Origin: a virus
Lineage: Duplodnaviria > Heunggongvirae > Uroviricota > Caudoviricetes
Virus record (IMG/VR): IMGVR_UViG_2519899835_000003
Direction: 5' to 3' (one strand)
Length of the DNA stretch: 64,000 bases
This document shows, piece after piece, positions 19,883-49,600 of this stretch; position 1 is the first letter of the stretch; every line of letters begins with the position of its first letter. A program made the translations under genes and the position numbers. The notes below the pieces were generated by a model that was not told the origin of the DNA, did not search any database, and was given only the letters and a program-made list of their open reading frames with translations.

Positions 19883-20500
19883 CTAATCATATACTGATGT
19901 ATTAATAACCAGGACCTTATCTATATACGGCTTTCGAATATCCCATGTTGCACCACCGGAATAATGCTCACAGGAATATATTTTATTTCCTGTAGCACCA
20001 GTGGATGTGGTATAAATCGGTCGATCATAAGGAGTTCTTTTCCAGTTATAATACCCGACCAGTGCAGGCATGATTGCGCATGGATATCCAAGGTCCTTTT
20101 CAAATTTGATATCAACAGGTATTAACTTCGCGTCAAGCAGCATCATTTCGCCATGATAAATCATCTCACCGTCCGGGTTATACATGGCGATACCATACTC
20201 AGAAGGTGGAGTAACCATATTCGCGAAAGCATAAACCGTCGTAACACCAGGGTTCGTTCCCCTGACAATTACATGAAGCCTTAGTGCATGATATCCATCA
20301 ATCTGTTCATGCGTGTACATGACATCGGCCTTCTTCTCTGTTCTGATAAAGAAAAAACAACTTTTGCCTGACGGGATTGATGTTTTAAAAAAAGACTTTT
20401 CAGTCGCCGGTATGGTGCCTTTGTTGATCAGACACTGCGGCGTAAAACCTGGACTTATCCATACGCTGCCATCCGGCTTCATAATGCTCAAACCGTACAT
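19883..20500 (-). CDS. Hypothetical protein with internal YG(F/L/I)-x-(I/M)-(Y/K)-(N/P)-DG repeats
   Basis: 205-aa ORF between J-like gene and lom; repeated MYGLSIMKPDGS / YGIAMYNPDGEMIY segments. Confidence 0.45.
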   Translation of the reverse strand: MYGLSIMKPDGSVWISPGFTPQCLINKGTIPATEKSFFKTSIPSGKSCFFFIRTEKKADVMYTHEQIDGYHALRLHVIVRGTNPGVTTVYAFANMVTPPSEYGIAMYNPDGEMIYHGEMMLLDAKLIPVDIKFEKDLGYPCAIMPALVGYYNWKRTPYDRPIYTTSTGATGNKIYSCEHYSGGATWDIRKPYIDKVLVINTSVYD

Positions 20501-20505
20501 AACAC

Positions 20506-20784
20506 TTATCCCCAGAATGTATAAATATAAGATCCCATACCCTGCTCAAGATTCGACCACGTCACCGTATTGTCATTAATGGTTATCTTCGGTACTTTCC
20601 GATCCGCAAATACATTATTCCAGGGAAATAAACAACATACAGCCTGCAATGATTTCCCGTCGGGTTTATTAGTGTACGTCTTTGAGCCAGACTCCGCTGT
20701 AAATCTGTCCAGGAAAAATACTGGAGTCAGCACGCCCGTAACATTAACGTTATTTCTGTTATAAATGGCAAAACCGTATTCCAA
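20506..20784 (-). CDS. Hypothetical protein (92 aa), same repeat family as downstream gene
   Basis: Starts MEYGFAIYNRNN; stop is 5 nt before the start of the next gene. Confidence 0.4.
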   Translation of the reverse strand: MEYGFAIYNRNNVNVTGVLTPVFFLDRFTAESGSKTYTNKPDGKSLQAVCCLFPWNNVFADRKVPKITINDNTVTWSNLEQGMGSYIYTFWG

Positions 20785-20798
20785 TACTCACCTCCTGA

Positions 20799-22067
20799 TC
20801 AGCGTAATCTGCCTATGCGAACAGCCAGTCGTCCATTCTGATCATAAACCTCAATTTTATCATTGCGGATCACCAGTCCTACATTCTGATTAGAGTAACG
20901 AATTGTCAGTTGCCCTTGTGACGTAACACTGAAAAGGCCTCCAATATTCAGGTTACCCTGAGAATCAACCTGAAAGTTTCCGTTCTGAATAACGGCACTC
21001 CGGATAACTGGCGAAGTGATACTTACCCCAGCTTTTACCTCATCCGCCACAACCTTCCGCGACACCAGTGTTTCAATCACCGCGTCATAAATCATCGCTT
21101 TCGGGATCACTACCTTGCCACCTGATACCGCAAACGGATAGGCTGTGTTATCCGGATTATTCGGGTCAAAGACAAACAACTGCGACGCAGAAATTGCAAC
21201 CTGACTTACAGGCCTGCCTTCACTGTCTTTTCCGGCGACAATCCCGATCCCCGCAGTGATACCATCAACTCCCGCTTTTTTTGACCACATCGCAAGGAAC
21301 GCCTCACCGCCTTCTTTATCCAGTTTAGTGATGCGCTTGTCGACCTCATTAAGCGATTCACTGGTTGACGAATCCAGTGTGCTAATGCGGGTTTCAATAC
21401 CACCAATCGTTCTTGTCGTTTCTTCCCTGAGAGTCCCCACAACTTCGGTTGTCTTAATTGCAGCATCCTTTACAGCCTGCCCCTGCGCGTTTTTTATTTC
21501 TTTACGCAGCTCGGACACAACCGGCGACTTTGCAGCCTCATCGCGGATCTGGTCAATGATGGCCTTCACGCCGATCTGTGTTTGTGCCTGAGTGCCTTTT
21601 TCAGCATTCCATGGACCTTTCACTCCTGCCGCGTTAACAAAACGTATCCAGTAAAATCCCGACCAGCCAGGGTCAACCGGATCGCCGTAAACCTGCCCCG
21701 GCGTCGTGGCAACCAGCACTGCATCAGCAAGGTCATCCTCCGTACCCCGCCAGATTTCAGTCAGTGAATGTCCGCGATAATTAGGCATATCCCATTCAAG
21801 AAGAACCGAGCCAAATCCTCCTGTCGCCTTAAAATTCAGCGGTTTTGTGGGAAAATCAACAGTCATTAAAGTACTGTCAATCTCAATACCCGGATTCAGT
21901 GCATATGAGGCACCACCCTGTGTACGACGTCGGGCAAGTTTAAGGCCAACCAGCTCTTCACGGGTCACAAAAGCATGACGACCGTCGCCACGCTGCCCGG
22001 TGCCAATTTCCATATTTTCCACAACAGCGGATAAATCCTTCCCCGCCCGCCACGGTTTTTTGCTCAT
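20799..22067 (-). CDS. Tail tip / host-specificity protein with lambda J-like C-terminal region
   Basis: PTKPLNFKATGGFGSVLLEWDMPNY fibronectin-III-like segment and ...KIEVYDQNGRLAVRIGRLR ending recalled as typical of J-family C-termini. Confidence 0.55.
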   Translation of the reverse strand: MSKKPWRAGKDLSAVVENMEIGTGQRGDGRHAFVTREELVGLKLARRRTQGGASYALNPGIEIDSTLMTVDFPTKPLNFKATGGFGSVLLEWDMPNYRGHSLTEIWRGTEDDLADAVLVATTPGQVYGDPVDPGWSGFYWIRFVNAAGVKGPWNAEKGTQAQTQIGVKAIIDQIRDEAAKSPVVSELRKEIKNAQGQAVKDAAIKTTEVVGTLREETTRTIGGIETRISTLDSSTSESLNEVDKRITKLDKEGGEAFLAMWSKKAGVDGITAGIGIVAGKDSEGRPVSQVAISASQLFVFDPNNPDNTAYPFAVSGGKVVIPKAMIYDAVIETLVSRKVVADEVKAGVSITSPVIRSAVIQNGNFQVDSQGNLNIGGLFSVTSQGQLTIRYSNQNVGLVIRNDKIEVYDQNGRLAVRIGRLR

Positions 22068-23689
22068 ATCGGTAACTCCGACATCGATGTACTCAGGGTT
22101 ATTCGTTCCACCTGCCCAAATCCGGATACCATCACCTGCCAGTTTTGCCCGGTTGCTGCCGGAAGTCTCACCACACTTCCCTTAAACGTACCCGGCGCAA
22201 AATGAATAACAGGAACATCATCAGCCATAACGGTGATCCCCACCCGCTCAGGTGCTGGAGATTTCACCCTGATACAGGAAAAAGAGGTTCTTTCAGGCAA
22301 TGAAAAAATTTTTGAATGCCACCTTATCGTGGACGGCAGAGAGCCCCCGGCAAGCACTGACATTTTGTCTCCTGTCACCACGCGCATCATATCTTTTGCG
22401 AGATCAACCCATGCGCAGTCAAACGGTGTACTGAGATAGCGGATATCCATGTTCACCGGGTTGAAGACAAACACATCCTGCTTACCATCAGGTTTCGTGT
22501 AACAGGCAATGTACTCACCACGCCATGAGTAAGCCACAATGGACGACGGATTAAACTGACTCTGCCACTGTTCTGGTGAAATGATTTTTTCCGTTACCAC
22601 GGCTGTACTGCCGCCTGCATCAACCGATACCAGGCCATTTGTTCCTGCATACAGCACGAATCCCTCCATCGCCACCATACTTCTTCGGCTCAGGCATGCC
22701 TGCATGGAAGGGATTTTGGAACCAGAAATTGTGGACGGTGATACCCCACTGAACAAATAAGGCTCCCCCTTTGTCGCCACCACCAGTGACGTTCCCAGCG
22801 GACAGATAGCCACAATATCTTCTGCCGTCGTGTGACGATTCACTTCCGGCCATGCATACGGCAGATACGCTTCCGAAAACATCACTTCATTACCGGCAAA
22901 CCCGGCGGCAATACCATTAGCCATCAGGCAAAGGCCTGTCATATTCTCTGGCGGCGGCAGGTAATCCCATGTCGCCAGGGAAGGCCCAAGGTTTTTCGCC
23001 GGTATTTTGTCCGTGTAACTGAGCACGGATGCATCCAGTTCAGCCACAAGTAAAAAATCCGCCTCCCCTCCACCTGATGCAGAGCGATAAATCCGGCGAC
23101 GTTTAATACTGGCATTCTGCAATGGTACCGGAGCCAGCGCCAGTTGTACCGCAGTTCCCGGAGTACGGAGTGTTACCTCCAGAGACGCCGGACCTGGCGG
23201 ACCTTCTTCACCATAATCTGAGACAAAGGTTTCCGTATAAAACCGGGTTTCATCATCATTCGGGTTATCGTCAGAAACATCACCGCCCTGCTGGACAGTA
23301 CAGACAGGAGCTGTCGTCGGCGCGGGGATCCCAAGACGATACGATGATGTCGGGTGATTCCCGTCCCCTTTTGTGGCAATAGTCGCATCCGTCACTTTAG
23401 GAAAACGCCCGTCAGTGTAGTAAATACGCCCGTGGGGGTCCTGAGCGATCGGACTGCGGATCACATCCACCACATCCGGCCATGCAAACCAGAAATCGTC
23501 ACGGTAATGAAAAATTGTTTTTGGCTTAATTGTGAATGTTTTCTCAACCCCGGATATCTGACGTTCTGGTGTAATAACACCAAACCGGAAATGGCAGTCC
23601 TCCGCCAGTACAGCGGAATGCTCGGACAGCATGGATGTCACAACGCGCGGCATCATCCCACGCATCGTGGTGATATCGATATAGGGCAT
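22064..23689 (-). CDS. Tail protein (541 aa from internal ATG with AAGGAA RBS)
   Basis: Overlaps the downstream J-like gene by 4 bp; start set at MPYIDITT, the first ATG with a ribosome-binding site. Confidence 0.45.
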   Translation of the reverse strand: MPYIDITTMRGMMPRVVTSMLSEHSAVLAEDCHFRFGVITPERQISGVEKTFTIKPKTIFHYRDDFWFAWPDVVDVIRSPIAQDPHGRIYYTDGRFPKVTDATIATKGDGNHPTSSYRLGIPAPTTAPVCTVQQGGDVSDDNPNDDETRFYTETFVSDYGEEGPPGPASLEVTLRTPGTAVQLALAPVPLQNASIKRRRIYRSASGGGEADFLLVAELDASVLSYTDKIPAKNLGPSLATWDYLPPPENMTGLCLMANGIAAGFAGNEVMFSEAYLPYAWPEVNRHTTAEDIVAICPLGTSLVVATKGEPYLFSGVSPSTISGSKIPSMQACLSRRSMVAMEGFVLYAGTNGLVSVDAGGSTAVVTEKIISPEQWQSQFNPSSIVAYSWRGEYIACYTKPDGKQDVFVFNPVNMDIRYLSTPFDCAWVDLAKDMMRVVTGDKMSVLAGGSLPSTIRWHSKIFSLPERTSFSCIRVKSPAPERVGITVMADDVPVIHFAPGTFKGSVVRLPAATGQNWQVMVSGFGQVERITLSTSMSELPI

Positions 23690-24029
23690 AGAAATTCCTT
23701 TGACTGCTTCAGGCTTAAAAATCAGGGGATTTATGATGGAATTCGCTAAAATCGCGATCGGTATCACTGCAACAGAGTGTTGCTATGATATTCTGGGCAA
23801 GACGTAACAACTCACTAATTGTTATCAAACTTCTTTCTTCTGGTCGGGGAGCATGTTGCTCCCCTTTTTATTGCATCATTACGGCAGCCACTGCACAGAG
23901 CGTTACCACTGCACCCAGCCACACAAAAATCTCCTGCTGTGTAGTGCTTCTTTACGTATTTCAGATTTGCCTGTTTCATGACAATTTATCAATTAGCATT
24001 AGCTAAACATTTTATACATAGTATACGAT

Positions 24030-24263
24030 TTACATTATTTGAGAGCAGGTTGTGCTGTCAAATGCTCCAGCTCCAACCCAACGCCAGTTGTAGTGATGCC
24101 CTGCATGATACAATTTATACTTCCCGCTTTTCTTAATCCCATAAATTGGCATTATAGTTTCTTCCCCACCTAAATATGCTTTACCATGGCAAAGCGGAGT
24201 TGGCAAAGATTTGCAACCAGATAATAATATCAATACAGCTAAAACACATTTGTACATTATCAA
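24030..24263 (-). CDS. Small lipoprotein (77 aa)
   Basis: Signal peptide with lipobox LLSGC (MIMYKCVLAVLILLSGCKS...); sits between the tail-fibre genes and the tail protein gene. Confidence 0.55.
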   Translation of the reverse strand: MIMYKCVLAVLILLSGCKSLPTPLCHGKAYLGGEETIMPIYGIKKSGKYKLYHAGHHYNWRWVGAGAFDSTTCSQIM

Positions 24264-24269
24264 CTCCTT

Positions 24270-24815
24270 CTAAACCTTATAAACAGATATAGTTTTTCCG
24301 TTTTGATTAAAGAGCCAGTTTTTAGAAACTATTGCACTATAATGCCGAGTATTGTTTGCAAATGATAATGGTGTGAATGAGATATTGGTTCCATCAAATG
24401 ATAGAGTAAAGTTTTGATTAGGCCCGTTCGTTAAGCCCAGATACATCTTGGTAGAGTCTTGCGTTTGAGAAAGATGCGTAATTGAACAACCTAACAACGA
24501 ACCATTTATTGAACCAGCCGGATTTTGTGTTTGCACACGGCTGGAAACGGCAGAGCCAGCACCTGTCGTTGTTGAGTTATTAGAATACCCTCCATAGTTA
24601 TTGTTTACAGGAACAATTTGTATATTTGTTGCCTGAACTAAAACAACAAAATTTGAACGACCTACAGTGATAGAAAAGTCCTGTACACTTTTCCCAACCA
24701 TTTGCGACATATAAAACGGTGTACTTAGCTTAAGTTTGGCACCTGCCGATTTCATTGACCTTTCACCAGTTACACTAACGGCAGAGGAGCCAACCCATCC
24801 GGAAGCAACCCCCAT
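24270..24815 (-). CDS. Hypothetical tail-fibre-associated protein (181 aa)
   Basis: S/T/N-rich ORF directly downstream of the collagen-repeat tail fibre gene. Confidence 0.4.
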   Translation of the reverse strand: MGVASGWVGSSAVSVTGERSMKSAGAKLKLSTPFYMSQMVGKSVQDFSITVGRSNFVVLVQATNIQIVPVNNNYGGYSNNSTTTGAGSAVSSRVQTQNPAGSINGSLLGCSITHLSQTQDSTKMYLGLTNGPNQNFTLSFDGTNISFTPLSFANNTRHYSAIVSKNWLFNQNGKTISVYKV

Positions 24816-24897
24816 TTAACATCCTCCTGTCATTCGGACGATAACACCAACCATCTTCTGCCTCAGACTAATGGTTCTCTGTTCTCTGATTGTTTTA

Positions 24898-27543
24898 TTA
24901 TTTCTCTTTAAGGTCGCTAATCTCTTTACGCAGATTTTTTATTCCTTCAACTAACAGTGCAATAACACCATTATAATTTAATCGAAATCTCTCTTCACCA
25001 GATATGATATCTGTATCAGATGTAACTAACTCTGGTTGAGCCTTTAACGCATCCTGTGCAAATAATCCCACAGATTGTTGCCAACTGCCATCAGCATTCT
25101 GTATTTCATACAAATAACCCGTTAGCAAGTCAAGCTTCTCCAGACAATTATCTATTCGTATTGCATTTCGCTTGTTGCGTTTATCCGAACGGATCTGAAC
25201 ATCGTTAAATGAGCCGTTTCCGGTCACCGTCAAATTGCCATTAATACCACCATTAAAAGTTTGTGCCTGAGTCCATGTATTGGCAGTAGTAAGCAGTTCT
25301 GTTCCTTGCCCGGGGGCTCCTGTGTCTCCCTTCGGTCCCTGCGGCCCTTCCGGACCTGCTGGACCTGCTACTCCCGGATCACCTTTATCGCCTTTCGGCC
25401 CCGGCGCACCTGCCGGACCTGCTGGTCCAGCCACCCCCGGATCGCCTTTGTCACCTTTTGGCCCCTGTGCGCCTGCCGGGCCTGCGGCTCCCGTATCCCC
25501 TTTCGGTCCCTGTGGCCCCGCCGGACCTGCTGGTCCAGCCACCCCCGGATCGCCTTTGTCACCTTTTGGTCCCTGTGCGCCTGCCGGGCCTGCAGCTCCC
25601 GTATCCCCTTTAGGTCCCTGCGGTCCTGCCGGGCCTGCGGCTCCCGTATCCCCTTTAGGTCCCTGCGGTCCTGCCGGGCCTGCGGCTCCCGTATCCCCTT
25701 TAGGTCCCTGCGGTCCTGCCGGGCCTGCGGCTCCCGTATCCCCTTTCGGTCCCTGTGGCCCCGCCGGACCTGCTGGTCCAGCCACCCCCGGATCGCCTTT
25801 GTCACCTTTTGGCCCCTGTGCGCCTGCCGGGCCTGCGGCTCCCGTATCCCCTTTCGGTCCCTGTGGCCCCGCCGGACCTGCTGGTCCAGCCACCCCCGGA
25901 TCGCCTTTGTCACCTTTTGGCCCCTGTGCGCCTGCCGGGCCTGCGGCTCCCGTATCCCCTTTCGGTCCCTGTGGCCCCGCCGGACCTGCTGGTCCAGCCA
26001 CCCCCGGATCGCCTTTGTCACCTTTTGGCCCCTGTGCGCCTGCCGGGCCTGCGGCTCCCGTATCCCCTTTCGGTCCCTGTGGCCCCGCCGGACCTGCTGG
26101 TCCAGCCACCCCCGGATCGCCTTTGTCACCTTTTGGCCCCTGTGCGCCTGCCGGGCCTGCGGCTCCCGTATCCCCTTTCGGTCCCTGTGGGCCTGCCGGA
26201 CCCGTATCGCCCTTGTCTCCCTTCGGGCCGGGAACGCCACCACCTGCAGCAACCTCTTCTGCCTTCTGTCTCGCCGCCTTGGCCTCATCCATTGCCGCCT
26301 TCACAGCCTTCGACGTGGCAGCCTTTGTTTCGTCATTACTGGCAGTATCACTACTTAGCTGCACAATTCCCTTCTGTGCCGTCGTCGCGTCCACCACATT
26401 TGCTGCGCTGCCCGCCGGACCAGGCTCCCCGCGGGGGCCCTGCGGCCCAGCTTCGCCTCGTTCACCTTTCGGACCTGCCGGACCTGTCGCACCGGCATCT
26501 CCTTTCGGTCCCTGCGGCCCCGCCGGGCCTCTCTCTCCTGCAGGTCCGCGTAGCCCCTGCTCTCCCTGAGGCCCTCGTTCTCCCGGCTCACCTTTTTCAC
26601 CTGCGGGACCGGCTGGTCCGGTGTCACCTTTAGGTCCTGCATCACCTTTCGGCCCGGGTGGTCCCCCCGGGTCTCCGGGGGCTCCTTTTTCACCTCTGGC
26701 CCCGGTTTCACCTCGTGGACCAGCAGGCCCCTGAATCCCCCGCTCTCCTTGCGGCCCCACCGGTCCTGTTTCACCGCGTGGTCCTTGTGCGCCTTGTGGA
26801 CCTGTTTCTCCACGAGGGCCTGCATCACCTTTCGGTCCGGTATCACCTTTAGGGCCTCTGGCATTCTCTGCCATACGCCTGGCCTCTTCAGCACTAACCG
26901 TAGCAGCCTCAGCACGTTTAAGAACGTCTCCGGCGGCCTCATGAGCCACTCTGGCGGTTTCAGCATGTTGTCTGGCATCATTCGCGTCTGCTGCCGCGGC
27001 CTTTTCAGACTCGCATGCCCGGGTCGCCGCTTCTGCAGCTTCACTGGCTTTTTGTCCGGCTTCAGCCGCCCTGCTGGTTGCCGTCTTTGCACTGTCAGAT
27101 GCACTCTTCGCACTGGCTGCTGCACTGTCTTTTGACTGTGTGGCCTGAGTGTTTTTTGTCGCCGTGTCTTCATTCAGGCGACGAATAGTGGCAAGGTCAT
27201 CAGCCACATTATTCTGTATCTGCCGGAAATCTGTCAGCAGTTCTCCGGGTATGCTAACCTCAACAAGACTGCGGCGTAACAGCATATTGAGCGTCACCGT
27301 ACTTTCGGTCCCCTCAATACGCACACGTCCGTAGACAGCAGTCTTCCCTTTCACCGTCACCGAAACCGCATACTCCCCCGGATCCATCGTCATTCCGTAA
27401 TATCCACCTTCACGGGTCACTGCCGACGCACTGGTGCCGCTGAGCGCATCCGGTGAAACTGTCAGCGCCGTCAGGGTAATATTTGCTCCTGATATCGCCT
27501 CACCATCAGGAGATTTCAGCGTCCCCGAAACAACAACACTCAC
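24898..27543 (-). CDS. Side tail fibre with collagen-like Gly-X-Y repeats and C-terminal intramolecular chaperone-type domain
   Basis: 881 aa; two long GXY blocks ([36 protein letters not shown] repeated); C-terminus ...[27 protein letters not shown] resembles the auto-cleaving chaperone of tail fibres/endosialidases. Confidence 0.8.
25250..26250. repeat. Tandem near-identical 108-bp (36-codon) and shorter 45-bp units inside the tail-fibre gene (approximate bounds)
   Basis: DNA lines from about 25,430 to 26,200 repeat almost exactly; the supplied six-frame track shows long artefactual ORFs on both strands here. Confidence 0.8.
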
Positions 27544-40222: not shown

Positions 40223-42133
40223 TTATGCGGCTGCTCCAGCTTTGTTTGCTTTAACTTCCACCGTATCAATAAGTACAGGGTAGGTTTCTGCACTACCTGT
40301 AATATCCGTAATGACAAACCTGTTGAGTCCATTAGCAGTATTGGCCCATTTCACCAGGTCAAACGCCTGTCCATCCACACCATCGAGCACCGGAGTAACA
40401 TTAATGCTGTTACTGCCCTTAAATTTAAATGCAAGCGTATGCCAGTCATGGTCGAATGCGCCAAACGTGCCAAGTTCTTTTTGTTGATTAACTGTATGAT
40501 GGTATGCAACATTAATACTGGCTTTATCTGTCTGGACAAAGAAAGAACTCAGATGGCCTTCACCACCCTCACCCGGCCATTCCGCTATTCGCCAGTACAA
40601 ACCAAAGGCATACTTGTTTCTGGTTGTCTCAAGATTGACGTTTTCGGGGATTTTAAACCGGACAGCAATTTCCCCGCCTTTTTCCAGTAAAAGTTTTGCC
40701 TTGTCTGCAGCAATATCACAGTACATTGACCAGGATTTCGCGCTGTTATTTTTCTCAATTCGCAGAGCTTTATTGCCGCTGTCATCAACCAGTGTGCGTC
40801 TGCCATACATACCGTCCCAGCCATAAGGTTTCAGCTGATTGTCTGTAGCTTTTTTGGCATCGTAAAAAATTACAGACTCTGAGGTGGTAACCGGCCTGTC
40901 TGGAACAACCACCCCGGCAGTACCATTAACAAACGCAGAAGACTTACCCGCGCAGCTCAGAATCGCCGTTGCCAGACGGTCGGAAATAATCCCACGGCGA
41001 GCCCATGAACTGAAATGGCTCGCCCTGTCCTGTGACGTCCAGGTGGCTGAGCTGTCACGCCATTTCGAACCGTAATATCCGATACCCGGAATGTCCGGGT
41101 CTTCTTCCGGTTTGTTCGTCGGCACATTCACCCCGTTCTCATCCGTCATGAACGGTACGAAATGGATATTCTTTTCCGTTTTATTTTTATAGCTGCCGTA
41201 CACCGTCTGGTACGTGGATTCGTTCTTCTGCTTCCAGAAATACGTCGTGTCCCCGCATATCCAGGGAACACCGCCAGCAGAGCCACCGACGCACTGGCCT
41301 GCCATATCCGCCAGGTCTGCACGGAATTTATCAACCAGCGCACCAAACTGTGCGGCATGATTTGCCGGCGTACCGCCAAAATCAAATTCCCCCTGCATCC
41401 ACACCACGGCAAACAGCACATTTTTCGGGTTCTTCTCCAGTGCCGCTTTTGTTCGACCGATAAGGTCCTTATACAGCGGCTTGTCCACACCCCAGCGGGT
41501 TGAATTCTCCGAGGCACCACTCGCGTCACTGTATGTGCCATCAGCTCCGGTGGTGAACGCTGAACCACCACGACAGCACGGAACCAGCAGAATGCCCGCA
41601 TTCGCCGGTATAAACGGCAGCAGTTTTTTGGCGATATGCAGCCCCTGCCCCACGGTTCCGTACTGCCCCTTTGACAGGTCCGCTTTCGGATGGTTAAGAC
41701 GGCTCATGTCCTGCACATCATGCAGACAATGGTCCGCCGGAATGATGTCGTTATATTTGCATGCTGCACCGCCCGGTGTCACCGTACTGCGACGCGCTAA
41801 CTGTTTAATACGTGGATCAGGGCTGTCGAATGTATCCGGTAATGGCAGTCCCTCACCGTATGACATACCATTGGACTGACCAGCAAGCGCGATCACATAG
41901 TAATATTCTGGCGCAACAGAAGGCGCTGAGGTCGTCGGACGGTTGCCTGGCTCCTCTGGTGATGAGATGCTCCCCTCACTCACAACTGGCTGGATGAACT
42001 CCGCACCATAACCAGCTGTCGAAATCAGCGCACTACCATAAGGCTGCCACCCTTCCTTCAGTTTTTGAGTTATTCGTTTCGCAAGGTCTGACGGCGACGC
42101 CGCCCTGACAACATCATAGTGTTTAAATGCCAT
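40223..42133 (-). CDS. NanS-p-type prophage esterase (DUF1737 N-terminal domain + SGNH/SASA 9-O-acetyl sialate esterase domain)
   Basis: N-terminus MAFKHYDVVRAASPSDLAKRITQKLKEGWQPYG and YYYVIALAGQSNGMSYGEG serine-esterase block; position between Q and the lysis genes as in Stx phages. Confidence 0.7.
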   Translation of the reverse strand: MAFKHYDVVRAASPSDLAKRITQKLKEGWQPYGSALISTAGYGAEFIQPVVSEGSISSPEEPGNRPTTSAPSVAPEYYYVIALAGQSNGMSYGEGLPLPDTFDSPDPRIKQLARRSTVTPGGAACKYNDIIPADHCLHDVQDMSRLNHPKADLSKGQYGTVGQGLHIAKKLLPFIPANAGILLVPCCRGGSAFTTGADGTYSDASGASENSTRWGVDKPLYKDLIGRTKAALEKNPKNVLFAVVWMQGEFDFGGTPANHAAQFGALVDKFRADLADMAGQCVGGSAGGVPWICGDTTYFWKQKNESTYQTVYGSYKNKTEKNIHFVPFMTDENGVNVPTNKPEEDPDIPGIGYYGSKWRDSSATWTSQDRASHFSSWARRGIISDRLATAILSCAGKSSAFVNGTAGVVVPDRPVTTSESVIFYDAKKATDNQLKPYGWDGMYGRRTLVDDSGNKALRIEKNNSAKSWSMYCDIAADKAKLLLEKGGEIAVRFKIPENVNLETTRNKYAFGLYWRIAEWPGEGGEGHLSSFFVQTDKASINVAYHHTVNQQKELGTFGAFDHDWHTLAFKFKGSNSINVTPVLDGVDGQAFDLVKWANTANGLNRFVITDITGSAETYPVLIDTVEVKANKAGAAA

Positions 42134-42619
42134 GAATCCTCCCGGCCGGGATAATATTGTGAGTAAAATAAGGAGCGGGCTGAAGTCCGGAAGTTACAGG
42201 ACAATGGCAGAAGGGAGACTACAGCCCGCAATTCGAAAAAGGTCGCGCAGTTGCGCAGAGTGATTACTATGGGGTATTATTCGCCAGCTGAAATATTACT
42301 TCACGTTTCATTGTTCATTCCTTGCCGCCCGCGTCTCCCAGCGCGGGCTTTTTTGTCCATAAGAAAGCCCCTCCGGAGAGGGGCTGGAGAGTGGCGCTAT
42401 GTGCCATTGCATGGTGCCGGGTGCCTCCCGGTGAGTTCAGCCCGGTGCCACTAAACCCGCGTCATTCTCGTTTTGATAATCAGAGATTATACCGTCACCA
42501 GTCGCCCCTCCGCTCAGGGGGATTCACCATGCAGTTTTTTCTAACAAATTCTCATCCGGGCAGACAACATTCAACTGACTTAATTGTGAGGTATGTAACA
42601 TTCCCGTTGAACGGATACA

Positions 42620-42650
42620 AAAAAAGCCAGCCACCAGGGGAGGCTGGCAA
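42620..42650 (-). terminator. Rho-independent terminator in the Q-nanS intergenic region (approximate)
   Basis: Minus strand reads GCCAGCC-loop-GGCTGGC followed by TTTTTTT. Confidence 0.45.
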
Positions 42651-42829
42651 ACTCGTAGAGCAAAATGCTGTTACGCAAACTTCGTTACAGGGTTATCCTG
42701 CAATACTTAAAATATACAATATTTAGAAAACTAATAGTGCCATATGAGATTTTTAAGATTTTGTTATTAATTGCGGTCGTACCTTCCTTTCTGTGTACTT
42801 TCCGTATAGCTCACAGGATTCTGGGTACA

Positions 42830-42858
42830 AAAAAACCCGCGCATCGGCGGGTTCGGCT
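42830..42858 (-). terminator. Rho-independent terminator ~45 nt downstream of Q (approximate)
   Basis: Minus strand reads AACCCGCCGATGCGCGGGTT followed by TTTTTT. Confidence 0.45.
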
Positions 42859-42898
42859 GCGTGGCAATGTAACCACTCTTATCATGATATGCAGATTT

Positions 42899-43333
42899 TT
42901 ACGATCGTAAACTATTTTTTCGCTGATAAAATACAGAGGTTCTCCCTCCCGGCAATTCACGCTCAACATACCGATCCATCTCAAGCCTCACTCCCAGCAT
43001 CATCAGCATGCCTTCAACAATCCCCTCCGCTTTGTGAAGGCGTTTACCTATACAGGTGTCAGAGCACCCATGTTTCCGTGCCAGCGCCATGAACGTCTCC
43101 CCCAACACGTAGTAATCAACCAGCAAGTCATGCAGATCGCGATTGTTCCGGTAAAGGCGGGCTATGCACCCGCATATCACCATCGCATCATCGTCACAGC
43201 ACTGTGGACGTGATTTTACTTTTTCGGGGATCAGTCCCTTAAATCCGGCAGCAATGGGCGACCATGTAACATCCTCATAGTTATTTACCGCCCATGCCCC
43301 CCAGCGCTCAAGAACCTGCCGGATATCACGCAT
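42899..43333 (-). CDS. Late-gene antiterminator Q (DLP12 QuuD-like)
   Basis: [34 protein letters not shown]...[16 protein letters not shown] matches the QuuD-type Q family; start set at internal ATG overlapping ninH. Confidence 0.75.
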
Positions 43334-43523
43334 CAGTATCTTTACCCCATCCGCGATGAACCATAAGGACGCCATTGACGACGGCGTGCTTTTTCGCATC
43401 TTTATCATCAATGTATTTTCTGACTGTAGCACGATTGCAGTTCAGTATTCTGGCGACTTCTGTCTGATTTCCCCTGGTGCAGATCAGTAATTCAGGTATC
43501 GTTTGAATTTTAGCATTCATCAA
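43326..43523 (-). CDS. ninH: NinH-like protein
   Basis: ...[30 protein letters not shown]...[10 protein letters not shown] resembles lambda NinH; directly upstream of Q. Confidence 0.65.
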
Positions 43524-45649: not shown

Positions 45650-45923
45650 AATGACGCCCTCGAGTGGTTTCTTAATAACTCACCACCGACGACGCCAATC
45701 GTCTGGTGGTGAACTGTGCAGGGTTGGCGTAACCGGGAAACCGACCGGCGCGGATCTCTCCGCCCCCACACAGCCCACCATAATTCAGATGTGCGCGTGC
45801 ATACGACAATAAAAAACACGCTCGCGGCGTGTATCTGTCGCGGTCTCTATCCAGGACGCCAATCCCGACGCCAGATTTTGCTGGCGCGTGAGGAATATAG
45901 CCCCGAATAAATCATCACGTCAA

Positions 45924-46106
45924 TCACCTTGTTTTCCTCGCACGATGTCTTAGCCACCGGATATCCCACAGGTGAGCCGTGTAATTGAAGGCTTTAACGT
46001 CAGATTCTTTTGGGATTGGCCTGGGTTTATTTCTGGAACGTTTCGTTGGAAGGTAATTGCAGTTTTCACAGACTATATCGGTAATGCTTCGTCGCTGTCG
46101 TCTCAT
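45924..46106 (-). CDS. ninE: NinE-like protein
   Basis: [36 protein letters not shown]...[17 protein letters not shown] resembles lambda NinE; start overlaps ninB stop. Confidence 0.55.
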
Positions 46107-46513
46107 TCATACCTCCTGTCGGTAAATCTGACACCCTGCTCCACAGCCCAGGAAGTTGTGTACTCAATCAGGCTTGCCATACGCTTCACGCTCATCTGCG
46201 CACTGCTTTCGCGGATATTGACGTATTCACCTTCAAGACCAGGCAAAACATCAGCTTCCTGTTTTGTCGCCACGGCATGACCGCTGATTAACAAAACTTT
46301 CCACTGTTCTGGTTTTAGCCATCTGCCGCACCACTGAACCTGTCGGGAGATATCAGCGACCATCGCGTGAAATTTGGCATTTTGATCGAGATTCCGCTTG
46401 TAATCGGTGATGCGGATCGTAACGGGTTTGTCTTTATCGAGAGTTGTTGCAAGGATGGCGTTAATGGCGAATTGTTGCTGCTGCTTACTTCGGAGGAAGA
46501 TAGTCTGGTTCAT
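46103..46513 (-). CDS. ninB: NinB recombination protein
   Basis: ...[11 protein letters not shown]...[41 protein letters not shown] colinear with lambda NinB. Confidence 0.7.
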
Positions 46514-46567
46514 TATTCCCTCTCACTGGATTTTCCCAACAAAAAAGGAGCCGAAGCTCCTTTAGTT

Positions 46568-47233
46568 TCAGAATTCAAATTGTCTTGCCCGCAGGCTTTT
46601 CAGCATTGGCATGGCCCGCTGGATAACGGAACTTGACATGTCGAGACGTGTTACCTCCCTCAGTAGCGCGTCTCTGTTCTTCGTCACCATGTAGATGGTC
46701 TCAAACGCAATGTCATACAGCTTGTTCGTGTATGAGGAGTTCAGCTCTTTCATAATGGGATACAGGTGTTTGCTGATGTCCTGGGCTTTTTCCATCCAGA
46801 GCTGCATGTAGCAAAGGAGGATGATTTCTTCGGCTGTGAATTGTGGCTGAATCTGCGGCTGCTGTTCGGTTGGTGCTGTTTTTCCCTGGCTGAAATAGCA
46901 GTCTTCCAGTTTTTCGAATACCTCCCACGCCCGATCGGTTTCGAGCATTTTTGCGTGACGGGCTGCGCCGCGTTCTGTCCAGAGGATGAGGGAGCGGGCA
47001 TTTTTACCAACTAACCCGATTGTTTCGGGTCTGTTCTTAAACTCGCGTAATTCGTTTTTTTCAATTTTAAAGTAATGCTTTCCGGGCATGAATCGCGTCG
47101 TGTTGTTCAGAAAGTTATCAGAAATGTTTTTGATTTTTGTTCCGTAAAGGTGAGCCAACAGTTCAGTAGTAATTACGGGGATCTGGTTATAGGTAACAGG
47201 GGAAAGGTTTTCGACAGAAATTTGAACAGCCAT
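46568..47233 (-). CDS. ORF6N-domain antirepressor paralogue 2 (C-terminal domain shared with 1949..2578)
   Basis: Same N-terminal domain as 44966..45649; C-terminal EEIILLCYMQLWMEKAQ...LRARQFEF plus the identical downstream terminator hairpin shared with the left-arm gene. Confidence 0.6.
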   Translation of the reverse strand: MAVQISVENLSPVTYNQIPVITTELLAHLYGTKIKNISDNFLNNTTRFMPGKHYFKIEKNELREFKNRPETIGLVGKNARSLILWTERGAARHAKMLETDRAWEVFEKLEDCYFSQGKTAPTEQQPQIQPQFTAEEIILLCYMQLWMEKAQDISKHLYPIMKELNSSYTNKLYDIAFETIYMVTKNRDALLREVTRLDMSSSVIQRAMPMLKSLRARQFEF

Positions 47234-47575
47234 AATGACCTCGCGTTTCGATAATTTTTACCTCGCCACCGTCAGGTGCTAATCATCGTGGTGGCGAACT
47301 GTGCGGGGTTAGCACTACCGGTCGAAACATCCGGCGAGCCTTTCGGCTCCCCCACACAGCCCGCCATAAATCGCGAATGTGACTGTGCTTAGCGCATAAA
47401 AAAACCGCCAGCGCGGTTATGCACCGTTTCGATATCCGGGGTGCTAATCCCGACGCCAGGTTTTGCTGGCGCGTGAGGAATATAGCCCCGAACACGCGAC
47501 GTTGTCAAACTGATGGCATTGCAGATCCCTACGCAATGTAACACTATGTGTTATACATTAATAACGGAACAAAAA

Positions 47576-49199: not shown

Positions 49200-49412
49200 T
49201 TACTCCTCAGGTTCGTAAGCTGTGAAGACAGCAACCTCCGTCTGACCGGTTCGGATTCGTACCTCGCATAGGTCTTTCCTCGTTACCAGTGCCGTCACTA
49301 CGACGGTAATACAGATGACGATCAGGGCGACTAACATCGCCTTTTGCTGCTTCATAGCCTGCTTCTCCTTGCCTTTCGGCGCGTAAGAGGCTAACCTACA
49401 TGTGTCTAGCAT
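49200..49412 (-). CDS. hok: mok/hok type I toxin locus (Hok toxin = 49200..49355, in-frame Mok extension to 49412)
   Basis: MKQQKAMLVALIVICITVVVTALVTRKDLCEVRIRTGQTEVAVFTAYEPEE is a canonical Hok/Gef; upstream in-frame MLDTCRLASYAPKGKEKQA mirrors mokC. Hairpin plus T run downstream near 49,112-49,132. Confidence 0.8.
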   Translation of the reverse strand: MLDTCRLASYAPKGKEKQAMKQQKAMLVALIVICITVVVTALVTRKDLCEVRIRTGQTEVAVFTAYEPEE

Positions 49413-49600
49413 GAAATTGGCCTCAGATTAATGTTAGGCGTCTTGCAGGACGCGTAATGTTAACTGGGGTTTTTCTCTGTCTGCCTTACGGTGGCATGCC
49501 CGAGGCAGACAGCCTCAAGCACCCGCAGCAATTCTACTTAACTCTCGCTTTACCGCAAACCGTTTTTACCCGATATGGGAATTCCCATATCGTAATGAAT

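Follow-up and report, generated by a model that had tools for sequence, protein, structure and literature searches.

The window, by which we mean the whole stretch of DNA analysed here, comprises 64,000 nucleotides (nt) of IMG/VR virus record IMGVR_UViG_2519899835_000003 (Caudoviricetes) and is a stx-negative 933W/phi24B-like prophage of the E. coli O104:H4 type. Our subject is cor, a small lipoprotein gene among its tail genes. The initial annotation had recognised an open reading frame (ORF) of 77 residues with a lipobox at 24030-24263 and, by analogy with T5 Llp and phi80/N15 Cor, had suggested that its product may block the phage's own receptor.

The lipoprotein gene and its family

The ORF at 24030-24263 exists and lies on the minus strand, as do all the surrounding tail genes. 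Read from its TTG start it gives 77 residues, beginning MIMYKCVLAVLILLSGC. This TTG directly abuts a Shine-Dalgarno (SD) sequence, and the ATG at 24257, six bases past the SD, is the likelier start, giving a product of 75 residues. The RefSeq gene model (228 nt, WP_000276176.1) agrees with the 75-residue form. The features of the gene are:

24030-24257, minus strand: cor coding sequence, stop codon included; 75 residues, consisting of a 14-residue signal peptide and a 61-residue mature lipoprotein from Cys15
24264-24269, minus strand: SD AAGGAG, 6 nt before the ATG, read directly from the sequence
24213-24224, minus strand: lipobox codons L-S-G-C, residues 12-15 of the 75-residue form, from sequence and alignment

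The lipobox recognised earlier is thus present. The N-terminus of the 75-residue form reads MYKCVLAVLILLSG followed by CKS, and both the size and the signal peptidase II lipobox fit the Cor family, whose members have ~75-80 residues. In E. coli, lipoproteins without Asp at position +2 undergo Lol-dependent transfer to the outer membrane. The mature protein begins C-K-S, with Lys and not Asp at +2, and is therefore predicted to reach the outer membrane.

Two profile libraries assign the protein to the Cor family. Against NCBIfam NF047972 ('lamb_exclu_cor' equivalog, 'phage exclusion lipoprotein Cor') it scores 70.5 bits, with a cutoff of 31, and residues 4-72 align to model positions 6-77 of 78. 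PHROG 1119 ('Cor superinfection exclusion protein') is matched with E=1.9e-33, residues 1-74 covering profile positions 1-77 of 78. On sequence grounds, the family match is far above chance. The protein is 51-53% identical to SSU5-type Cor, 42-44% identical to the Cor proteins of HK022, N15 and phi80, and 32% identical to that of T1. In an alignment of seven Cor sequences, C15 (in the lipobox), C23, G30, G31, A52, G53 and C71 are invariant, and all the motifs of the mature domain are present: two Cys that probably form a disulfide, GG, (R/H/K)AG and NW(R/Q)W, here YNWRWV.

Searches with the protein differed in reach. A tblastn search found matches in 212 phage records and an exhaustive phmmer search returned 22 protein clusters, while a word-indexed protein search returned its own cluster alone. 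Four of the 22 clusters (P0004, P0005, P0010 and P0014) were rejected as spurious; they hold long tandem-repeat proteins, in one example YSLYHCAGAWE repeated 19 times, whose score is the sum of many weak repeats. Pfam gave no family at E<=0.1 and PADLOC no match at the threshold used. Neither library appears to hold a Cor model, and these misses are no argument against the assignment. Judged by its sequence, then, the gene for this small lipoprotein genuinely belongs to the Cor family. The functional class proposed in the initial annotation is borne out beyond the analogy on which it was based, since the protein is a sequence homologue of phi80, N15 and HK022 Cor. This identity is not new. The gene is already catalogued as Cor in databases: RefSeq O104:H4 genomes carry the identical protein under the label 'phage exclusion lipoprotein Cor', PGAP names the gene cor, and the record of Stx2-converting phage 86 annotates it as 'cor' with the remark 'O86 specific region1'.

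We also predicted the structure of Cor, with an alignment of library representatives as input. The model is confident, adopts the small SH3-like beta-barrel fold of T5 Llp, and is closest to Llp in its complex with FhuA. The two proteins are 13% identical in the structural alignment; no sequence homology to Llp was detectable, and no T5-like phage was among the tblastn matches listed.

The surrounding tail genes and the low-GC block

On the minus strand the gene order is lateral fibre, adhesin, cor, a 54-codon frame, nozzle, needle, Ig-like, hand-like and Lom. The structural names of the tail proteins follow the phi24B cryo-electron microscopy preprint and PMC12309495. The features around cor are:

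24898-27543, minus strand: collagen-repeat lateral tail fibre, 881 residues (Pfam Collagen, Phage_fiber_2 and Peptidase_S74; phi24B gp61 is the lateral fibre)
24270-24815, minus strand: tail-fibre adhesin, 181 residues, with a Gp38_N domain (Pfam PF21721, E=1e-19; PHROG 1121, E=6e-66)
24034-24061, minus strand: sigma-70-like TTGACA-16-AATAAT (11/12, a consensus match only), which lies across the cor stop codon and faces the small ORF
23815-23979, minus strand: Cys-rich frame of 54 codons with 5 Cys, downstream of cor in the direction of transcription, no SD
23846-23864, no strand assigned: GC-rich hairpin at the edge of the cargo slot, past the small ORF; conserved in all four sequences compared, T-run on the plus strand only
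22064-23767, minus strand: nozzle protein, 567 residues, homologue of phi24B gp57 and 933W L0124
20799-22067, minus strand: central needle or J-like tail-tip fibre, 422 residues (Pfam Phage_Tail_Tip; PHROG 496; phi24B gp56)
20506-20784, minus strand: Ig-like tip protein, 92 residues (PHROG 557, annotated 'outer membrane protein'), 100% identical to phi24B
19883-20500, minus strand: 'hand-like' candidate receptor-binding protein (RBP), 205 residues (PHROG 425, annotated 'membrane associated protein'), 100% identical to phi24B (BamA type)

The initial annotation had set the gene between collagen-fibre genes and a tail protein gene. The immediate neighbours are the 181-residue adhesin on one side and the small ORF on the other, and the 'tail protein gene' beyond the latter is the nozzle gene. 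The adhesin is 44.5% identical to that of SSU5 and 57% identical to that of L034, a 107-kb SSU5-like contig. The cor SD directly follows the adhesin stop codon, leaving an intergenic gap of 12 nt, and within the late operon the translation of cor is closely coupled to that of the adhesin gene. Upstream of cor, a simple scan found only weak promoter-like sites (9/12); the same scan finds no promoter before HK022 or phi80 cor.

Cor and the adhesin belong to a low-GC block of ~1.4 kb (~23,800-25,250) that also includes the fibre tip with its S74 chaperone. GC content is ~39% for the block and for cor plus adhesin, compared to 50% for the window and 70% for the adjoining collagen repeats. The GC profile and the fibre alignment both place the distal ~120 codons of the fibre (about 24898-25250; tip plus S74 intramolecular chaperone) in this block, which is the counterpart of 'O86 specific region1' in Stx2 phage 86. 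The fibre as a whole differs in length between relatives (881 residues here, 635 in O104:H4 2011C-3493 and 673 in Stx2 phage 86), and the number of collagen repeats is therefore variable. In other frames and on the opposite strand, the repeats give rise to long spurious ORFs as well.

The block is inherited as a unit. Neither adhesin nor cor occurs without the other; 53 of 5426 complete E. coli genomes have both, and the cor ORF is intact with a strong SD in all 53 genomes and in 10 phage records. Identical cor DNA is found in E. coli O104:H4 genomes, and a block of 97.7% identical DNA is carried by Stx2-converting phage 86, Shigella phage POCJ13, phi296, phi315, phi367 and phi419. The slot that separates the fibre gene from the nozzle gene holds different ORFs in 933W-type phages and phi24B, and eibD in P-EibD. 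The comparison of these sequences makes the slot a cargo hot spot. Outside cor, the only match of a megablast comparison with 933W-type phages such as Stx2 phage I was a ~170-nt segment. From its sequence affinities, the low-GC block looks like an import from an SSU5-like module of the order adhesin, Ig-like, hand-like RBP, cor, from which the two RBP genes have been lost.

The small Cys-rich frame lies at the edge of this block. The initial annotation was right that the frame exists and has no ribosome-binding site; it has, however, 54 codons and not 57, lies downstream of cor and not upstream, and is apparently the remnant of a frameshifted gene. We aligned the window with Stx2-86, a 933W-type phage and P-EibD. 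In P-EibD, orf-60D is an intact small membrane-protein gene with a C-terminal membrane helix, which ends in RKRYTTGAMCFMLFVWLGGVLALVATAAVVMQ and its stop codon just before the conserved hairpin. The window frame keeps N-terminal similarity to orf-60D (KHYTAG) and is then 14 nt shorter; the conserved hydrophobic tail, IFVWLGAVVTLCAVAAVMMQ and a stop codon (23868-23951), is therefore out of frame. What had looked Cys-rich is an out-of-frame reading of the hydrophobic-tail segment and the hairpin. Thus the 54-codon frame appears, on this alignment, to be a frameshifted remnant of an orf-60D-type gene at the edge of the imported block and not a gene. The frame switch sits at a run of five T, GATTTTTGTG, where slippage is formally possible; a +1 slip would restore a 36-residue membrane protein. 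A type I toxin-antitoxin system or a small RNA (sRNA) was also considered for the small ORF with its hairpin. Rfam at gathering thresholds gave no family there, the hydrophobic frame has no ATG, and a remnant is the best explanation.

Several features lie elsewhere in the window. At 40223-43432 the antiterminator Q gene is followed by STnc100 sRNA (42355-42560) and then a nanS-p-type esterase gene, with no room for stx; the window contains no tRNA gene. The isrK / C4 antisense RNA / a1b1 target module (P1/P7-type antirepressor control) is present twice in tandem at 45702-47485, and sok antitoxin RNA is found at 49350-49524 (110 bits). Offset from the O104:H4 annotation places a separate gene of the Hok/Gef family at about 18.7 kb, immediately downstream of lom.

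Genomic context of cor and the receptor question

We scanned IMG/VR for cor and classified 80 loci with hidden Markov models for four proteins. Cor directly follows the Ig-like and hand-like genes in 65 of them, and at six of the 65, all SSU5-like, a gp38-like adhesin gene precedes the pair. The order J, Ig-like, hand-like, cor is also that of T1, HK022, N15 and phi80; a 2026 paper, which associates it with the use of FhuA, terms it the cor cassette. The window's cor does not occupy this position after J-type tail-tip, Ig-like and hand-like genes. Its lineage accounts for 7/80 loci, in which cor has no such pair directly upstream and the adhesin adjoins cor in six; the seventh contig ends 63 bases upstream of cor.

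The cor-cassette position is the typical context and not a property of the protein, as another 8/80 loci are also without the pair. In these, an unrelated HK97-like siphovirus has a lone cor (~45% identical) inserted between its tail-chaperone and tape-measure genes, and no RBP pair was detected within 4 kb at any of the eight. One example is L072 (7001-7237); the others are L069, L073, L074, L077, L078, L086 and L090. These lone inserts are a precedent for cor as free-standing cargo.

The nearest relative outside the window lineage, L034, has a Cor 59% and an adhesin 57% identical, in the order adhesin, Ig-like, hand-like, cor. In E. coli SSU5-like plasmids a Tfa-type protein (a chaperone) takes the place of the adhesin, and the pair and cor are kept. 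From the locus survey and these plasmid gene orders it follows that cor travels with the tip RBP pair and not with the adhesin.

The prophage has a tip pair of its own, located after the needle gene, and both proteins (92 and 205 residues) are 100% identical to those of phi24B. This is the phage for which BamA dependence was established, and its tip proteins are RBP candidates. The sister phages phi296, phi315, phi367 and phi419, which carry the same adhesin-cor cassette at 97.7% DNA identity, are reported to use BamA and to be inhibited by purified BamA in a competition assay (PMC12502783). Given these BamA-using sister phages, the phi24B-identical tip proteins and the absence of a cognate RBP pair beside cor, the earlier proposal that the lipoprotein blocks the phage's own receptor finds no support. 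Cor probably neither blocks this receptor nor affects the prophage's own BamA route.

What, then, would Cor do here? The published work centres on FhuA. Cor of HK022, N15, phi80 and mEp167 inactivates FhuA and excludes FhuA-dependent phages; the traits that accompany this inactivation are exclusion of such phages, reduced ferrichrome uptake and protection from colicin M. FhuA is the only target shown for Cor proteins, and its inactivation is known for the proteins of HK022, N15, phi80, mEp167 and T1 only. Predictions give Cor and Llp a common fold and a common periplasmic binding site, and an AF3 model puts T1-type Cor where Llp sits, on the periplasmic side of FhuA; the molecular mechanism of Cor is described as unresolved. 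From this literature we infer an Llp-like mechanism. Once lipidated, Cor would reach the periplasmic leaflet of the outer membrane through Lol and there fold into a small Llp-like beta-barrel. From the periplasmic side it would bind an outer-membrane receptor, which is most probably the ferrichrome transporter FhuA, and switch the receptor's external loops, such that phage RBPs, and probably colicin M too, could no longer dock.

Cor has been uncoupled from its RBP pair in a prophage that keeps a phi24B-type BamA tip, which argues for exclusion of other phages and not for self-exclusion. We therefore favour, with a probability of roughly 0.6, heterotypic protection: if expressed, Cor would guard the lysogen against FhuA-dependent phages (T1, T5, phi80, HK022) and colicin M. 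Two points weigh against this. The cognate RBPs of the SSU5 branch are only 16-22% identical to FhuA-type RBPs, and the only reported receptor of SSU5 is the lipopolysaccharide (LPS) core; for these reasons this branch of Cor might address another outer-membrane protein.

Such a protein could be the terminal receptor of SSU5-type phage-plasmids, for example another TonB-dependent transporter, and Cor would then exclude those phages instead of FhuA-dependent ones. The window protein is closest to SSU5-type Cor (51-59%), whose gene is tightly coupled (11-nt gap) to the divergent Ig-like/hand-like pair, and the literature notes Cor/Llp-like proteins beside BtuB- and LptD-specific RBPs. However, Cor proteins of this branch are 42-50% identical to those of FhuA-blocking HK022, N15 and phi80, whereas T1 Cor, which also targets FhuA, reaches only 35-38%. 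The NCBI equivalog cutoff is exceeded more than twofold, and known non-FhuA exclusion lipoproteins, Rtp45 and its like, are not among the 60 structural matches listed. We consider a different target for the branch unlikely, though worth keeping in mind.

Self-exclusion could still operate if Cor masked BamA or the receptor of the gp38-like lateral-fibre adhesin, sparing progeny from infected cells and debris. In favour of this reading, cor is always inherited with the adhesin. The late tail operon holds it 12 nt past the adhesin gene and with no promoter of its own detected, which is the timing expected for progeny protection. Yet we judge this quite improbable. Cor follows the Ig-like/hand-like pair and not the adhesin in 65/80 loci, and the SSU5-like E. 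coli plasmids that swap the adhesin for a Tfa-type chaperone retain both pair and cor. The BamA-type tip proteins are 100% common to phi24B, and 933W-type phages (Stx2 phage I) hold different ORFs in the slot, so BamA use does not require Cor. In addition, the reported receptor of SSU5, which has a related adhesin, is the LPS core, and this is not maskable by a periplasmic lipoprotein.

It is also conceivable that cor merely hitch-hiked with a host-range block of fibre tip and adhesin and is not expressed or not selected here. Cor has lost its cognate RBP genes, the small ORF beside it is a frameshift remnant in a slot that accumulates debris, and the window and Stx2-86 alleles differ at only 2 nt (one synonymous, one not), too few to show purifying selection. 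The ORF is nevertheless intact with a strong SD in 53/53 genomes and 10 phage records and lies within an actively transcribed late operon, and the lone inserts elsewhere show cor kept without RBP partners; a mere passenger is therefore very doubtful. We give as little credence to a retargeting of this Cor branch from FhuA to the adhesin's outer-membrane receptor or to BamA, although with BamA as the target it would be the first phage lipoprotein to mask the essential BAM insertase from the periplasmic side.

While the identity of the gene adds nothing to what RefSeq and the phage 86 record already state, its setting makes a modest addition: a receptor-masking gene split from its cognate RBP genes is cargo in a host-range cassette of Stx-type phages. 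Roughly 1% of complete E. coli genomes carry the adhesin-cor block, among them those of the O104:H4 outbreak lineage. Lysogens with cor are predicted to resist T1/T5-type phages and colicin M, which is relevant to phage typing and phage therapy of these pathogens. With its compact mature domain of 61 residues and a confident Llp-like model, this variant is a reasonable candidate for structural work with FhuA.

Comparison with known systems

T5 Llp (PDB 8A60, 7QJF) is encoded beside the RBP pb5 and expressed early in lytic infection, and is 13% identical to the window Cor. Rtp45 of phage Rtp (PDB 9RPS) follows the same logic as a small periplasmic-side lipoprotein beside RBP genes that distorts receptor loops; its target differs, being LptDE, and it is not among the sequence or structural matches listed for the window Cor. 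T1 Cor (Drexlerviridae) is a lipoprotein of the same family, with 32% identity and a reported FhuA block. In this lytic phage, cor lies on the opposite strand as a unit of its own after the RBP pair.

The Cor proteins of HK022, phi80, N15 and mEp167 resemble the window Cor in full-length homology, size, lipobox, the two Cys and the GG, AG and NWRW motifs. The HK022-type gene, however, follows the J, Ig-like and hand-like RBP genes after a gap of ~110 nt, is itself followed by a strong terminator, and belongs to phages that use FhuA. By contrast, the window's cor lies 12 nt past a gp38-like adhesin gene, has no terminator of its own and belongs to a short-tailed phage that uses BamA.

The closest relatives are Cor (gp25) of the Salmonella phage SSU5 and those of SSU5-like phage-plasmids (pLAU-OXA1, L034), with 51-59% identity for cor and 45-57% for the adhesin. 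They share with the window the tight translational coupling of cor to the gene upstream. Whereas the window lineage is without the Ig-like and hand-like genes at this place, the SSU5-like elements keep both between the adhesin (or Tfa) and cor.
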